A program made the position numbers and the translations under genes. The notes beneath the pieces were generated by a model. The model saw nothing but the letters and a program-made list of their open reading frames with translations, had not been told where the DNA came from and did not search any database. This document shows, piece after piece, positions 8,956-34,442 of a stretch of DNA of 64,000 bases. The stretch is from Podarcis cretensis (taxonomy: Eukaryota), in NCBI GenBank assembly GCA_951804945.1, contig OX638149.1:31372001-31436000 (forward strand), in the 5' to 3' direction. Every line of letters begins with the position of its first letter. The first letter of the stretch is position 1.

Positions 8956-9450
8956 TGTCCGAGACTGGGCAGTGGGGGAGGAGTGGTGGAGACCCCCTCC
9001 CCATCCTGACCCTTCCAGGGAGGAGGAAGAGGAAGACAGTATAGATTTACAACAGGGGTTTGTGGGAGGTCGCAGCTCAGAGGCAAATGGGAAAAATTGG
9101 GAAATGGGAGAGGAGGAGCTGGCAGCTGGCTGACACGTTGTCACTAGAAAGCATTTCAGACCCATCATCTCCCAGAACCCGATGAGCCTTAAAAGTAGGA
9201 GAGCAAAGAGCTCAAAGACAGAGGGCACTCAGCGGCCCCCATAGAGGAGGTGATGATGATGACAAATGAGGAAGTGGAAGTGGAAGAGAAGGGGGGCGGG
9301 GTGGAGATTCACTCAGGACAATGCCATTATCCAAGAGGCTGGGTTCTATAGCCTCTCTCTGTAAAGTTTGAAATAAAAAAGGACTGTAAGAAACTCTTTC
9401 TTGTCTTCCTTGTCCTGGGCAACCAGCTGGGAGCTGCTGGCAGCATCCTG
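8956..9450 (+). mobile_element. Solo LTR (Gypsy-like), copy 1
   Basis: Starts TGTC, AATAAA near 9372, ends ...catcctga (3' end eroded); homologous to the copies at 19437 and 23967. Confidence 0.6.
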
Positions 9451-9869
9451 AGTAAGGAACTGAGTAAGGTGTAAGGAACTAATAACCCACTTTAGCCTTA
9501 TTTTGCTTCCAAATAAATATGATTGGTATCACAGTCTTTCTTATAAGGAAGCTGGCATACAATATTTTCTTATCTGAAGGAGGCAAATTGTGTCATCATA
9601 GTGCAAATACTCATCAGTTTCATCTGTCCTACCTTCTTGGTATGATATATCTGCGTCTGCTGCTCTTATCCTCTGAAACTTTTTGTTCTCCCTATTTTCC
9701 ACTTCTCTTAATGCCTTCCAAAGGAAACACAGAAGCTAGCACACTTGTAGGCTATCTGGGGAAAGGTCACTGAGATGGGACAGAAGGGAATGTTATTCCT
9801 GTGCATACCAACTGTCCCTGTTCTCAATTAGCTGCTACACTATTGTGCTGCCTGGAGATTTTAGGAACA

Positions 9870-15110: not shown

Positions 15111-15646
15111 ATTGTTGTTGTTTAGTCGTTTAGTCGTATCCAACTCTTCGTGACCCCATGGACCAGAGCACGCCAAGCACTCCTGTCTTCCACCGCCTCC
15201 CGCAGTTTGGTCAAACTCATGCTGGTAGCTTCGAGAACACTGTCCAACTATCTAGTCCTCTGTCCTCCCTTTCTCCTTGTGCCCTCCATCTTTCCCAACA
15301 TCAGGTTCTTTTCCAGGGAGTCTTCTCTTCTCATGAGGTGGCCAAAGTATTGGAGCCTCAGCTTCACGATCTGTCCTTCCAGTGAGCACTCAGGGCTGAT
15401 TTCCTTAAGAATGGAGAGGTTTGATCTTCTTGCAGTCCATGGGACTCTCAAGAGTCTCCTCCAGCACCATAATTCAAAAGCATCAATTCTTCGGCGATCA
15501 GCCTTCTTTATGGTCCAGCTCTCACTTCCATACATCACTACTGGGAAAACCATAGCTTTAACTATACAGACCTTTGTTGGCAAGGTGATGTCTCTGCTTT
15601 TTAAGATGCTGTCTAGGTTTGTCATTACTTTTCTCCCAAGAAGCAG
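15111..15646 (-). mobile_element. BovB (RTE clade) LINE, 5'-truncated
   Basis: ORF 15248-15625 MTNLDSILKSRDITLPTKVCIVKAMVFPVVMYGSESWTIKKA..RIDAFELWCWRRLLRVPWTARRSN is the BovB RT C-terminus; (CAA)n tail. Confidence 0.93.
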
Positions 15647-18284
15647 GGCGGGCAGGGCGGGTTATAACAATTTATTTTTTAAAAAAACACACACACAAAA
15701 ACACATATTGCACTCACAAGGATAGAGTGGATACTGAAAACACACAGATGTCAAAGGCCAAGGAATGTGTGTCTTCCACATTTGCTGAAAGCTGTATAGA
15801 AGTCGGATGCCCCTGTGTGGGGATGGAATTCTACTATTCCATGATTCCCTAGATAACTGCATGTGGCTGTGACCTGGTAGAGCAAAGTAACAGGGGAAAC
15901 CATCTTGGAAAGTTGAGTTGCTGCTGAAGGCTCCTTCTCCACCGCTCCCCACAGCCTTACCCCACAGCCTTACAAAATGCTTGTGTGCCCCCACCAACCT
16001 TTGCTTTCATTCAAGCCTTTCTTAGTTGCAACCTGCTGGTTATGAGCAACTATCTCATTTCTCAATTATCTCCAGGAGGGAAGCCAACCTCCTTCTTGAA
16101 GGGCAACCAGACAAGGTTGTTCATCCTGCGTAGCTGCTTCCTGAAGTCAGCCCATCCGGTCTGGCCCAGCCTGGCTATATCTTGTCAGAATCTCTTTGAT
16201 CCATACAAATCGCCGAGGCTGCTTCTCTTCCACTTCTTTGTCACCTGTGAAAACAATATTCCAAATCTGCCCGATAATCTTTTACCACCAAGGACACCAT
16301 GGCTTCAGCGAGCGAAGGAGGCCCTGACTAATGAATGGCCCAGTTAGTTGGCTGGGAGACAAGCCACAAGTGTTCTGAGATGCATTTCTTTCCCCATATT
16401 ATTTTATTTATCTCACAGGCCAGTGAAACATTTTAATGCGAAATCCAAACATCCCTAGGGGACCTACCTGCCATGAAAAGTCTCCCAGATTCTCAGACTT
16501 TTAAAAATAAACTCAATCAATATTAATTTACTTCACTTGTTCATAAATTAGACACAGATCTTTGGCGACTCAAAGCATATTTTCGCCTGGGACAAAGCAT
16601 ATATTTAAAGGCCAATAAAGGCTTCTGTTTTTTATTTTTAAGAGTCCTCTTAGTACAAAGATGACAGGCTATGAGAACACACAAGCAGTTTCTGTTAAAA
16701 TATTCTGGCCCCGAATCACAAATCAATATATTTATGTTATCGTGAGTGAAGATGGACCACCTCAAACAGACAAATGATGTCAGCTTTGACACCTAGGACA
16801 AAAACTCCTGCGGTAAAAGGATGGAGTGTTGTCATGCATTGTTTGCCACATGCACCAGGAGGCAGGAGATGGTTTGCTCCACCCTCTTAAAAACTCTCTG
16901 CCCCTAAAGTACGGCTGTCACTGGACTTGATATGTGGAGAACCTTTTCCAGCTTCAGGGTCACAGTCATTTCTATGCAACCTTCTTGGGGTCGCATACCA
17001 GTGTTGGGCATAAGTGGGTAGAGGAATGATGAATGCAATTTTTTCCTTTGTACGGTAGACTAGCAGCTACGCATGTGCTCACACACCCATCTTTCCTCTA
17101 TGCAGGCAAGCAATACGCTTGTTAGACTTCTAGGACACATCCTGTCCAGTCAGAGGCTCTCAGGGATGGTGCAAAGCAGGACAGCCGAGGGATGTGGCAT
17201 GGAGAGAGGCTTGTGATCTGTGGTGGGATGTGCTCAGAAAGCAGGAAGAGCTCCACTCTTTCCCAGAATTAGAATGTCCCTTTGCCTCTGCTTGCTTCCA
17301 ATAGGCTGCGTGCCACCCTGATATTTTGTCCGTCTCAGTACTGAGAAGTGTGCTTCCTCCTCCTCCTCTTCTTTTCTGCCTTGACCTTTCCAAGGTGCCC
17401 TCCACCAGCCCCTTCCAGCCTTCTCTTCTTCGCTGTGGGAAGTGCTGCTTTTCATACTCACAGGGTCACTCACCAACCCACTGAAAGAGTCTGCTTATGT
17501 TGGGAATATGCAGGTGGAAGCTATTGATTTCTCCATCCATTACTTATCACGTGAATTAATGCATGGAAGTGTTTCTTCTTCTCTCTTGCCCCACATTCCT
17601 GAGGATGCTTTTATTGTGTTCATGTAGACGGCCGTAGCTTGTTCGAAATCGTTTGCTTGTGTGTCACCAAGCAGAGAAGAAGCCCTTGAAAGAGTCTTCA
17701 ATTACGAGCCGATTCTCTGTCTGGGACTGCAGGGTCATCACCAGTTTATATACTTTCCGATTAGCACCCATCTCTCTCTTTCTTGTTATGTCTGCGTTAG
17801 GTATCTTCTAAAACCTTTTCTTGTGCTCCATACTCCCGGTAGGTGGTCCACAGCTGCTTTGAAGCAAAGACTTAAGGGGGGGGGGAGATGAAAATGTGGA
17901 AAGCCATATATAAAAGCAGAGCATATTTTTCAATGCGCTCGTACATTTCCCCTGCCACTGTGACAGTTCTGACAGCATACATTACACACAGCAATTCCAT
18001 CTCCTGACATCGTAGTAGTCAGCCCTCCATCCTCCTTGAGAAGCGTCTGGGATGAGCTACGCTCTGTGTAATTGCTCAAAGAACGGCTGCAGGACCTCTG
18101 AAGCTTGCCAGATGTCACTGACTGAACCCAAGCCCGGAAGAGTAATCTCAAGCCACAGACCACCATAGGCGTCGGGGGGGGGGGGGGAGCCTTAAATTAA
18201 ACATTGACATTTGCCAGTCTTAAGGGCCTATGTTGACACTTGTATAGGTTTTTAAATCCTTGAAAAACCTACTTGTCGAGTGCC

Positions 18285-19436: not shown

Positions 19437-19941
19437 TGTCAGAGACCGTGCTGAGAAGGGCTGCACTGAGGAGGAATGGTGGGAGCCACCCCCCTCCCCC
19501 TGCTCCTGAATCTTCCCAGGAGCAGGAGGACAATATAGATTCAGAACAGTGGTTTGCAGAGGGGCATAGTTCAGAAGGCAGAAGCTGGGAAATGCTGGAT
19601 GGGGAATAGCTAGGAGAAGAAACACTGGAAGAGAGAGGGTTAACTGATTCATAGTCTCTGGACACCATTCCTCCGCTCAACTCAAGGTCGAGAAGACCTC
19701 AGAAAGTCTCAGGACAGAAAGCACAGAGGGTACAAGCTCAGATTATAAGACATAGGAGTGACATAGATTAATAGGGATGGAGGAGGTGTGAGCCTTAACT
19801 GGGAGCACCGCCATTCTGGGTTGGCACTTTCTTTTGTCCTTCGCTGTGCTTTTTAAAGAAACTAACTGGTAAGAATTCCTTTTGTATGATCTGCTCATTT
19901 ACGGCCACAGGGGAGAAAGACGATTCCCCGAAGCCTAACCA
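19437..19941 (+). mobile_element. Solo LTR (Gypsy-like), copy 2
   Basis: TGTCAG...CCTAACCA ends with near-match flanks ccat/ccac; collinear with the 8956 copy. Confidence 0.6.
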
Positions 19942-23863: not shown

Positions 23864-23966
23864 TAGCTCAGAGCATGAGATTCTAAATCTTAGAATTGGG
23901 GGTTTGAACCCCACATTGGGCAAAAGATCCCTGTGTACCATCTAACTCTACAATTCTATGATTCTG
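23864..23966 (+). mobile_element. tRNA-Lys/CR1-tail SINE, degraded; tail continues at 24491-24503
   Basis: tagctcagagcatgagattctaaatct...gaaccccacattgggc, then actctacaattctatgattct. Confidence 0.7.
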
Positions 23967-24490
23967 TGTCAGGAGTGGGAGTCAGGAGCAAGTCGGTAAT
24001 AAATCACAAGACATGAGTAAAGTTAACTCTTTATTCAAGGAAACAAATTCGACTCAGAGGCCAGGCCTAGTGAGCACCGGAACGCATCCTGGTAGATCTT
24101 TCCCCTCCTCCCCAGGTCCTTCCCAAGCAATCTGAGACTATGTCACCATTTCTGTATTTGCTCTGCCCTCTTCATACCTCTTCTGGTTCTGGGAGACCAG
24201 GGTGGGAAGGGAGCTGGTTGCAGCAGGAGGGAGAGATTTCTTCAGCAACATCCCTCATCACTGCTTCTAGCCCCCCACCCCACCCCACCCCACCCCGTCC
24301 AACCTCTGCTTCTGCCTCTGCTTCTGGGCTGCTCTCTGCCCCAGCCTCTTCCTCCCCCAGTCTGCTCTCTTTTCCCTCTGACCACTCATCATCATCCCAC
24401 CACCAATCCCCTGACTCAGAGCCTTCTTCCCTTGGGGGTTCCCCAGCTGGTATCTCCCACCACTCCTCTGCATCCAGCCAGTCCATGACA
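23967..24490 (-). mobile_element. Solo LTR (Gypsy-like), copy 3
   Basis: TGTCA...TGACA termini, flanks ttctg/ttcta (5-bp TSD with one mismatch), minus-strand AATAAA near 24030. Confidence 0.8.
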
Positions 24491-30736: not shown

Positions 30737-30981
30737 TCAGACCTTGGCTTCCAGCATTTCTAGGAAGAGTTTGTGCATGGGGACCTTGCCCTGCAGTTTG
30801 ATGCTATAGAAGTGCTGCACGGCCTTGGCAGCTGTTTGCCGCAGGAGGGGAAGGGTGAGCAGCAGCTTCCCCGCACGCCGTGGTTCCTCATGACGCTGGC
30901 TCAGCTCGTAATCCTGGAGAGCTTCGTGGAGAAGGTCTTGGAGTTTCTGCACTGCATCCATGTCCTCTATGTGCATCGAAT
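30737..30981 (-). CDS. ESRRB: ESRRB last coding exon, LBD C-terminus with AF-2 helix and TGA stop
   Basis: Encodes (D)[80 protein letters not shown]; acceptor ctttgcag|AT. Confidence 0.96.
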
Positions 30982-31829
30982 CTGCAAAGAGACAAGGCAA
31001 AACAAACAAACCAGCGAAAAAGTGAGAGGGCAAATCTGCCTGTCCTTTAAGAAGAGCTGATGCACCTTTCTTATACATATCTCTGTCGTGTGAGAGGCAG
31101 CCTTTTCCGTGGCATGCACCACCTCCTAGATGGAACTTCCTGCCTTAGAGGTTAACACATATTCCACCAGCATTTGAGAACCTTTCTTTGTCTACAAGCC
31201 TTTGATTCTATTACTGTTTGTGGCTGCAGTCTAACTCCACTTACCTGGGAGTACGGTAAGTCCCATTGCATTTTCTAGGATTTCTGGGTAGACATGGTTA
31301 GGAATGCACTTTAAGTTGTGGGTTCTTGTATTTTTAGTTCGGGATCTTATGGTTCTTTCTAACGCAATTTTCAGTGTTGAGGCATGGGGGGGGATGTTTT
31401 TAATGTATCTATTTTTCATGATGGAATGTTTTTAGATAGGCCTCTCTACAATGTGCAGCTGCCTCAAGCCAGGTTCAAGCACTGGCTCTGTATCACAGTG
31501 GCAGTTTTCCAAGATCAAGGTAGCATTGGAGTTAGTAAAAAATGAAGTGAAACAAACCACAATGCTGGTTAAATATGAAATCGCTACGACCCAGTGATCT
31601 GGAAGCTGTTTCGACAACTAGAGGGATATAAAAACTAAAGGAGGTGCTCAGAACATCCTTTCTACCTTGAGCACCGTCAGACTGAACCAAAGGAATAATA
31701 AAGGAATGTTATCTCACTCTAGTTGTCTAGAAAGTCCCCATTTGGACCACACATAAAGCTCATGAACCCAATGTCTTTCATGGGCGATGGTGGCCAGATT
31801 CTCATGTCTATCCCAGATGGTAACCTTAC

Positions 31830-32099
31830 CTGAGTTGGCAAGAGCCAAGGCCTTGAGTGTCACAAACTCTTCCTTCTCCACCTTCAGCTTCTTATACCTG
31901 CGCACAAGCTGCAGGATGGCCAGGTAGAGTTCCAGCAGGCCCGTCAAGCGAGAATGTTCCTCATCCATGATGTAATCTTCAGCATAGACCAATTTATCCT
32001 CATAGGGTAATGAGCGGTAGACGATACCCAGGATGAGTATCTCCATCCATGCACTCTGCAATAGGCTCATCTGGTCCCCCAGGGAAAGATTAGAAAAGC
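31830..32099 (-). CDS. ESRRB: ESRRB exon, ligand-binding domain core (270 nt)
   Basis: Encodes (G)[89 protein letters not shown](D); acceptor ctgccag|GC, donor CAG|gtaagg. Confidence 0.96.
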
Positions 32100-32414
32100 C
32101 TGGCAGGGCAAGAATAGCAAGTCAGCTTACATACACAGGTAGGAGACGATGTTTTAGCACTGCCTGCTCCAAGCCCCGAAGCTTAGAAATCTGGCAGGGA
32201 CTCTGTTAGGTCACCCAGTGATGGAAACCTCAATATTCCCGTGGAGAGCCCTTGGCCATAAACATTTAACCACAGTTCAAGGTAAAAAAAATGCACCTTT
32301 GACTAAGTGCTAAAAAAAGAAGAAATGAAACTTTCAATCATTTCACTCACAGGTGTGCCACATTTTAAGAGCAAGTTGCATTTGCAGTTCCACATGGTAA
32401 GCCACTTCCTATGT

Positions 32415-32550: not shown

Positions 32551-33508
32551 TCCTATGTAGTTTGGGTGATTTTAACCATTCCATGACACACATGGATTTT
32601 GTAATGGAATACAATCCCATTCACACAATCCCATTTGGAATCACCTTCAGCTTGCCACATACCAAAGCTTCCCATTTCCTTTGGAAGCTGCACACATGAA
32701 TGAAAGAAAGAGTAAAGACTCAGGTGTTTTATTTAAAAGGACTGATCTATGTAATTTAGGTGGAACAGCTGCCTAATAAACCATGTATACTATAAACAAA
32801 TAAGTGCTCTCCATGTATACTATAAACAAATAAATGTAGAGCTGTGGATGTGTTTTCACACTTCCTGCCATAGAATAGCATTAAATACTGCCATGTGCCT
32901 GGCTATTGTTAGGCTTGCTTATACATCACACCAACAAGCTTTGTAGCATTTAATCACAAAAGTCCATTCACAATCCATTAAGTCCATTCAGGCTGCGAGC
33001 AGAAGGACCCCCTCCATGAGTGCAACTCCCTTCCAAAAACAGAAGCTCAATCCCTTTACAGAAAAAAAGTTAAGATCCAAGTCAATTTTTCTTAACAATG
33101 GAACTCAATACAGTTTTATAACATTGCCTCCACCAACCAGAGGATCATTAATGTTATCTTAGGACCCACAGGAACAAACAGCACCTATTCTGACATGAAC
33201 ACCAATTTGGGTACCAGGCAGACCAGACAATGAAAAGCCATGAATGAAAACTGAACAAATTAGAATTAGTAGTATTTATTGAGATCCCCACAATAGAGGA
33301 ATGCTGTGCTTGAAAACTACATAGTAAGATCATGTGTGTTGGCAGGAATTTTTCTAGGTGGTGGTGGGAAGGCAAAGTACATACTAGATGGGGGCCTGGC
33401 TAGTTTCTCACAAAAAATTAAAAATAATAGTTCCTGTATGTTTTGCCTTATAACTCAGATTCCGCAAGTACTAGAAATGTACTCTCTCACTTCCTTTTTT
33501 TTTTTTTT

Positions 33509-34442
33509 ACCAGTGAAGGCGGTAAAGGTCCTGTGTGAGTGTCTGGAAGCGGTTGGAGGATGTATGGCGGCTAACAGATTGAGGTTGAATCCTGACAAGA
33601 CAGAAGTACTGTTTTTGGGGGACAGGAGGCGGGCAGGTGTGGAGGATTCCCTGGTCCTGAATGGGGTAACTGTGCCCCTGAAGGACCAGGTGCACAGCCT
33701 GGGAGTCATTTTGGACTCACAGCTGTCCATGGAGGCACAGGTCAAATCTGTATCCAGGGCAGCTGTTTACCAGCTCCATCTGGTACGTAGGCTGAGACCC
33801 TATCTGCCTGCAGACTGTCTCGCCAGAGTGGTACATGCTCTGGTTATCTCCCGCTTGGACTACTGCAATGCACTCTACGTGGGGCTACCTTTGAAGGTGA
33901 CCCGGAAACTACAACTAATCCAGAATGCGGCAGCTAGACTGGTGACTGGGAGCGGCCGCCGAGACCATATAACACCGGTCTTGAAAGACCTACATTGGCT
34001 CCCAGTACGTTTCCGAGCACAATTCAAAGTGTTGGTGCTGACCTTTAAAGCCCTAAATGGCCTCGGTCCAGTATATCTGAAGGAGCGTCTCCTCCCCCAT
34101 CGGTCTGCCCGGACACTGAGGTCCAGCGCCAAGGGCCTTCTGGCGGTTCCCTCACTGCGAGAGGCCAAGTTGCAGGGAACCAGGCAGAGGGCCTTCTCGG
34201 TGGTGGCGCCCGCCCTGTGGAATGCCCTCCCATCGGATGTCAAGGCGATGGACAACTACCTGACATTCAGAAAACATCTGAAGGCAGCCCTGTTCAGGGA
34301 AGTTTTTAATATGTGACATTTTAGTGTATTTTACATCTCTGTTGGAAGCCGCCCAGAGTGGCTGGGGAAACCCAGCCAGATGGGTGGGGTACAAATAATA
34401 AATTATTATTATTATTATTATTATTATATTATTATTATTATT
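33509..34442 (+). mobile_element. Young 5'-truncated L2 LINE with an uninterrupted ORF2 C-terminus (about 267 codons)
   Basis: NRLRLNPDKTEVL, SRLDYCNALYVGLP, LQLIQNAAARL, DHITPVLKDLHWLPV and APALWNALP motifs; stop at 34316; (ATT)n tail. Confidence 0.9.

Follow-up and report, generated by a model that had tools for sequence, protein, structure and literature searches.

Decayed solo LTRs of lizard chromoviruses in which a hidden peptide is likely to be the end of Pol/integrase

In the plant elements of CRM group A, as set out in the accessible part of the published account, coding sequence continues into the 3' LTR, and the LTR encodes the CR motif (PMC3059260). The lizard elements described here share this layout, in that Pol/integrase crosses the PPT and enters the 3' LTR, and the LTR part of CRM has been proposed to act in chromatin targeting; in CRM group A, however, the CR motif replaces the chromodomain, whereas here a canonical chromodomain stands before the PPT and is followed by an acidic-basic LTR tail of 100 to 140 residues (PMC3059260). 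The beet Reina-clade elements Bingo1-4 and 7 also have a chromodomain upstream of the PPT and an ORF that enters the LTR, but they are plant elements, and the available part of their description gives the extension without a stated length, selection test or motif (PMC3605345). Sushi-type chromoviruses resemble the lizard elements in their order RT-RNase H-integrase-SH3-chromo, in an LTR start of TGTYA and in an AATAAA near the LTR end, and the Sushi LTR models, in the accessible part of that source, make no mention of such a frame (PMC3601003). No description of this tail in a vertebrate chromovirus was found in the literature, and subscription papers, repeat libraries and supplements, which lay outside the scope of the search, may note the overlap. 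Since the layout is published for plant chromoviruses, the advance lies in the vertebrate case, the evidence for selection and a motif lead.

The window, a stretch of 64,000 nucleotides of Podarcis cretensis (contig OX638149.1, positions 31,372,001 to 31,436,000), had been reported in an earlier note to hold three divergent solo LTRs that preserve a peptide read from their base 2 (T/GTC), and both the positions and the frame were confirmed. Copy 1, of family 1, spans 8956..9451 on the plus strand; its terminal CA and target duplication are unrecognizable, and members of its family have TG..CA ends and 5-bp duplications. Its U3 holds a decayed Pol C-terminal tail (8957..9269, plus strand) with one frame break and one internal stop in the basic block, in the frame that is continuous with a chromodomain in locus L133. 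From 8957 it reads VRDW..WEMGEEELAAG and a stop and, after the frame shift, ADTLSL..SPRTR, a stop, ALKVGEQRAQRQ..DDDDK and a last stop, ending at 9269; an AATAAA at 9372..9377 (plus strand) is by its sequence the likely polyadenylation signal. Copy 2, of family 2, spans 19437..19940 on the plus strand and has a degenerate right end. Its decayed Pol C-terminal tail (19438..19771, plus strand) has one frame break, inside a proline run, and is in the frame that is continuous with a chromodomain end in locus L127; as to its internal stops, there are two, both TAG, and the earlier note had shown one. The right ends of copies 1 and 2 are damaged and leave no clean target duplication. Copy 3, of family 3, is complete: it spans 23967..24490 on the minus strand (524 bp, TGTCA..TGACA, flanks TAGAA/CAGAA, a 4/5 duplication), with a likely polyadenylation signal, again AATAAA by sequence, at 24030..24035 on the minus strand. 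Its decayed U3 frame (24119..24489, minus strand), acidic and then basic, runs from 24489 downwards for 105 codons without a stop, with the basic block in a different frame; we infer that this too is a Pol tail, its parent not having been found. The earlier reading that a basic block follows in all three copies once frameshifts are allowed was borne out. Copy 3 sits inside the end of a short interspersed repeat (window 23870-23966; repeat families D11 and D15).

The families of the three copies are all distinct and high-copy (2706, 1945 and 4732 candidates in the initial genome search), and their members span TGTCA to TGACA over about 480 to 600 bp. Exact 5-bp duplications flank 9/21 family-1 and 7/19 family-2 loci for which both ends were called (25 loci each), and 15/21 and 10/19 when at most one mismatch is allowed; for family 3 the corresponding figures are 1/20 under loose and 3/10 rows under strict end calls. 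By their TG..CA termini and target duplications at the family level, all three elements are solo LTRs. The window also holds LINE and SINE debris, including reverse-transcriptase-end fragments of two LINE types at 33297-34316 (plus strand) and 15248-15661 (minus strand), which we take to be L2/CR1-like and RTE/BovB-like, respectively, as well as two exons of a nuclear-receptor ligand-binding domain at 30737-31144 and 31714-32121 (minus strand), presumably resembling estrogen-related receptor.

Frames were projected through DNA alignments of natural copies (n = 25, 25 and 24 for families 1, 2 and 3; the family-3 alignment excludes 10 of 34 loci, which are truncated or interrupted), and a codon with a stop in at least half of the aligned copies was counted as a family-wide stop. 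The frame that begins at LTR base 2 (frame 0) is open in each alignment, with no family-wide stop over 107, 110 and 141 codons, respectively, and in many single copies more than 100 codons are stop-free. Family-wide stop codons number 4 and 8, 4 and 6, and 3 and 7 in the two remaining plus frames, and frame 0 itself has 3 to 4 beyond the tail. After dinucleotide shuffling of one open copy per family (2000 trials), 1.1%, 0.1% and 0.4% of the sequences stayed open, with references chosen for being open and a family-2 window that took in its two terminal stops. The minus-2 frame of family 3 is likewise without family-wide stops. Internal stops in frame 0 are minority events within each family, and the commonest of those in families 1 and 3 lie at codons that read CGA or TGG in other copies, in agreement with the proposal of the earlier note that they are explainable by CpG decay. 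Families 1 and 2 are clearly homologous in their peptides (blastp E values of 1e-9 to 1e-16), and their DNA aligns at about 70% over 130 bp. Such an alignment would also be expected if the LTRs shared only purine-rich DNA homology or a conserved enhancer, with no coding constraint, but among the three plus frames frame 0 alone is open family-wide.

A search for a PPT followed by an LTR led to a family-1 LTR with a chromodomain remnant upstream (locus L093), and the DNA upstream of this LTR, used as a query, gave 40 matches. RT, RNase H, integrase, Tf2-type SH3 and chromo domains are all present in the parents of families 1 and 2. The internal regions of L127 and L130 have the Pol order RT-RNase H-integrase, and L130, a related-LTR element that is 71% identical to L127, matched RVT_1, RT_RNaseH_2 and Integrase_H2C2 of Pfam. 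Locus L133 contains a chromodomain (PF00385, E value of 2.2e-10, 40.7 bits versus a cut-off of 25.1) and, after it, a family-1 LTR with 82% identity to copy 1 over 176 bp, and L127 and L129 provide the same succession of chromodomain, PPT and LTR for family 2 (72 to 73% identity to copy 2). Stop-free stretches cross the PPT in L133 (165 aa, covering the chromodomain and the first 59 residues of the family-1 peptide), in L127 (143 aa, covering the chromodomain end and the whole family-2-type peptide) and in L128 (303 aa, from integrase into the LTR of a related family), and all three natural stretches use the frame of LTR base 2. Families 1 and 2 derive from Ty3/Gypsy parents of the chromovirus type, and Pol very probably read through into the LTR in both. 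The first of two options offered in the earlier note, a Pol/integrase tail reading through the PPT into the 3' LTR, has direct support in families 1 and 2, and younger relatives back it as well. Among old loci with chromodomain, PPT and LTR, 5/10 independent loci are in phase, as are 3 of the 7 among them with family 1- or 2-type LTRs; since an in-phase share near one third is expected after decay, the old loci alone would prove little. In two family-1 loci, L097 and L098, the G-run at the PPT is longer, a feature common to both, and the Pol frame of L097 stops there.

An endogenous retrovirus was considered as the source and rejected: Pol in the parents of families 1 and 2 contains an SH3 domain of the Tf2 type and a chromo domain, the PPT comes directly after the chromodomain and leaves no room there for env, and the integrase of L129 groups with lizard Gypsy integrases. 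Three loci (L085, L086 and L125) consist of a short LTR head, a PPT and a second LTR start and appear to be deletions between GAG-repeat microhomologies in the LTR and the pre-PPT linker. A decayed fragment of chromodomain, PPT and LTR recurs more than 12 times at a spacing of tens of kilobases (G000:C8:14.93-15.67 Mb, L099-L117), likely as a segmental tandem array.

The layout was settled by younger relatives, drawn from the 150 scored matches of a search with the integrase end. In three younger families (A, B and C), 100 to 117 codons are read into the 3' LTR in the same phase. The family-A element L166, whose two LTRs are 98.8% alike and which is flanked by an exact 5-bp duplication, has a single frame of 1544 aa, which terminates 352 nt into the 3' LTR, in phase with LTR base 2. 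In L172 and L174 of family C, both with exact 5-bp duplications, the frame ends 301 nt inside the 3' LTR, also in the base-2 phase, and read-through is present in 6/6 loci of family B. Gag and pol form one frame in family A (L166) and two overlapping frames in family C (L172/L174). In a tree of the integrase C-half (24 rows, midpoint root), the long-tailed lizard elements fall into a single clade (99/99), which unites families A, B and C with Anolis, a family-2 parent and two related old parents; the tree holds no family-1 parent, and its rows labeled 'fam1like' (L128 and L131) have LTRs of related families.

In family A the phase is lost in 8/14 copies through several different length changes in one G-run before the PPT. 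This run is an indel hotspot about 24 nt before the 3' LTR, and its length differs in 7/12 copies from that in L152 (L152-L165, L176). The out-of-phase copies lie scattered in a weakly supported tree instead of grouping together, a pattern that points towards repeated slippage or errors of assembly; family A may often make tail-less products, or the assembly may slip at the G-run. The lost phase would also suit a passive read-through, in which Pol simply meets no stop until 100 to 140 codons into U3, purine-rich DNA that has few stops, and the tail is merely tolerated.

We compared dN/dS between frames. It was obtained by Nei-Gojobori counting, which ignores transition bias, so that the other frames are the fair control. 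Dropped from the comparison were the L167 core (misaligned, the copy being internally shorter), L177 (masked bases) and L129 (whose own frame break splits the signal), and the pairs L174/L173, L173/L177 and L170/L171 were also left out. In the young pair L172/L173, dN/dS of the tail was 0.26 (other frames, 1.36 and 0.96), with two 18-nt gaps; the Pol core had a value of 0.045, so that constraint on the tail is far weaker. In L166/L168 the tail had a value of 0.50 (other frames, 1.20 and 2.91), the Pol core 0.53 and the chromodomain region 0.19. Between families 1 and 2, for which pN and pS are given because bootstrap intervals omit saturated replicates, pN was 0.33 to 0.34 and pS 0.83 to 0.84 in frame 0, and dN/dS was 1.2 to 1.7 in the other frames; the differing columns numbered 38/35/54 and 32/29/53 by codon position, and the gaps were 12, 3 and 6 or, with the reciprocal reference, 3, 15, 1 and 14. 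Those between L135 and family 1 were 3, 17, 1 and 15. For L127 versus family 2, dN/dS was 0.48 (0.29 to 0.80; other frames, 1.22 and 0.88). The signal is weak in family 3 (0.56 versus 0.63 in frame 1; pairwise differences of 0.198/0.170/0.223), and there is little contrast between frames within families 1 and 2 (family 2 by codon position, 0.096/0.096/0.094).

Moderate purifying selection acts on the tail, and the dN/dS comparison that the earlier note had proposed came out with frame 0 below the other frames both in the young pairs and between families 1 and 2. The flat codon bias within families would fit DNA homology with no coding constraint, but it is also what neutral decay after insertion is expected to leave, and the differences between families are concentrated at third positions; a DNA-only explanation is largely refuted and has next to no probability left. 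Passive read-through is harder to square with dN/dS values that are below those of other frames in each independent between-lineage comparison with an unbroken reference, and with indels that mostly preserve the frame. A selected role of the tail is likely.

Seven tails were compared, from six families of this genome and from Anolis (LTR boundary of the latter set by analogy). They have 96 to 142 aa, of which 15 to 24% are hydrophobic, and carry a net negative charge in their first part (-6 to -29) and a net positive one in their last (+2 to +9), with the switch mostly at SP or TP; that length and charge order are kept in seven lineages speaks against a tail that is merely tolerated, although its sequence is not alignable across most families, as tolerance would allow. 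The structure predicted for the family 1/2 tail (pTM, 0.28) has one confident helix, on the basic block (residues 79 to 100), and is otherwise mostly extended. By this model the tail consists of an acidic arm and then a basic helix, is probably largely unfolded, and is not a folded domain. Of the selected domain of about 100 to 110 aa claimed in the earlier note, the selection on the frame stood and the word domain did not; of its acidic, Trp-rich and then basic composition, the change from acidic to basic held in all seven tails, whereas Trp richness is confined to families 1 to 3 (4 to 9 Trp versus 0 to 2 in the four other tails). The view that the peptide is not a described domain was upheld, as neither profiles nor the predicted structure gave a domain: Pfam had no match for any tail tested, an Atlas search with the tail gave no usable match, profile searches (profile A1) gave 3 and 8 matches to short or chimeric entries only, and none of 281 candidates matched the family-2-type tail among longer proteins. 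Two predicted host proteins (P0005 and P0007), presumably SPARC-like and endophilin-like, contain part of the family-2 tail, read in the frame of the tail itself, and represent exonized LTRs or gene-model errors.

Retroviruses encode accessory proteins such as nef, sag and bel in U3, and the second option of the earlier note was, by analogy, a separate accessory protein from U3; such a product might be an acidic Trp-rich transactivator. An ATG at codon 2 of the frame in families 3 and A would suit such a protein, as would the acidic and Trp-rich composition of families 1 to 3 and the fact that no parent ties the family-3 frame to Pol. However, families 1, 2, B and C lack an early ATG, in the family-2 copy L078 the peptide is entirely devoid of Met, and the frame continues that of the chromodomain. 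Families A, B and C and Anolis are not Trp-rich, so that a transactivation role is not the shared feature, and a separate accessory protein appears improbable.

The link of family 3 to the other families is weaker. It matches families 1 and 2 only by motifs (blastp E values of 0.2 to 3; hhalign probability of 6.7%, E value of 0.005), sharing with them the LTR start, the phase, the opening V.DW..EEWW, SPRTRR and the charge order. At the place matching RRSAR of other tails it has xxSLRLLGK, and exact RRSLR in 1/8 copies listed. Searches with PPT-plus-LTR patterns for a family-3 parent gave 4, 0, 25 and 9 matches, none with Pol by tblastn, two of which (L188 and L202) have a PPT-like stretch without recognizable Pol; a protein search found no parent in the best 150 of 6494 candidates (longest open frame, 222 aa), and 0/50 chromodomain-side loci (30 + 20) had a family-3 LTR attached. 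The shared LTR start, phase, motifs and charge order make it fairly likely that the family-3 frame has the same origin as a Pol tail.

In the comparison of Pol proteins from Podarcis, Anolis, frogs and carps, only the lizard clade showed the long acidic-then-basic tail. Public protein entries of Podarcis and Anolis hold the tail, unannotated, and a Pol entry of Podarcis muralis, which includes the tail, is 93% identical to the L166 query. Unlike the lizard elements, several frog Pol entries stop shortly past the chromodomain, and carp Pol entries end in a stretch of about 57 to 59 residues, Arg- and then Ser/Pro/Thr-rich, unlike the lizard tail. Four of the carp entries (P0041, P0047, P0052 and P0060) have GGGG(S/N)V and then a short Ser/Pro/Thr-rich end that is probably LTR-coded. 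That many relatives (from frogs and other sources) and one Anolis entry end no more than about 30 residues past the chromodomain is in keeping with passive read-through. Against it stands an ending common to family A and Anolis: the family-A tail ends PRRSARLKA, and three Anolis Pol clusters end SRRSARIAA. With selection on the frame also in view, we regard passive read-through as unlikely. RRSxR occurs in none of families 1, 2, B and C, whose ends are Arg-rich.

In the accessible part of a published account, HMGN binds the nucleosome acidic patch with RRSARLSA and Dsup does so with RRSSR, and AlphaFold 3 gave only low-confidence models for HMGN2 on the nucleosome (PMC12487698). The lizard tails resemble these proteins in the RRSAR[L/I] that ends the family-A and Anolis tails, in RRSLR of one family-3 copy and in having a basic segment within a protein that has few hydrophobic residues; they differ in that the resemblance covers five to six residues only and is missing from the four families just named, which leaves a putative anchor judged by its motif (PMC12487698). 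By this analogy the tail might be a second, LTR-encoded anchor of integrase, in which an HMGN-like arginine would grip the acidic patch and the slippery G-run may give tail-less forms, a tentative proposal that we consider possible and rather doubtful.

The explanation that we hold to be most likely is that all three LTRs are solo remnants, now decayed, of lizard chromoviruses and that their hidden peptide is the end of Pol/integrase, probably a flexible chromatin-directing arm. The genomic RNA of an LTR element has U3 at its 3' end, so that a Pol frame that meets no stop on reaching the PPT would carry translation on into U3. In the relatives of copies 1 and 2, and by extension presumably in those of copy 3, the Pol frame passes from the chromodomain through the PPT into 100 to 140 codons of the 3' LTR, and its product would have the order integrase, chromodomain, acidic arm and basic helix. 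Reverse transcription places U3 in both LTRs, and recombination leaves solo LTRs that still hold the code; because the two LTRs of an element copy each other, every LTR, solo ones included, carries the coding stretch. The tail was probably under selection in replicating elements, and the copies in the window are decaying neutrally. The basic end would most likely serve in tethering to chromatin or DNA, in nuclear import as an NLS, or in both, with the acidic arm as a spacer, and a flexible acidic arm with a basic helix would help to bring the integration complex to chromatin.

What looked like a hidden gene in thousands of lizard solo LTRs is, on this explanation, a fossil integrase end. The first 300 to 420 bases of these LTRs evolve as coding sequence, which bears on the dating and annotation of LTRs and matters also for gene models that pick up tail peptides. 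The tail is also a short candidate, open to testing, for the means by which vertebrate chromoviruses may reach chromatin or the nucleus, and a second integrase anchor, if true, would give vertebrates a counterpart of the CR motif that plant centromeric elements encode in their LTRs.
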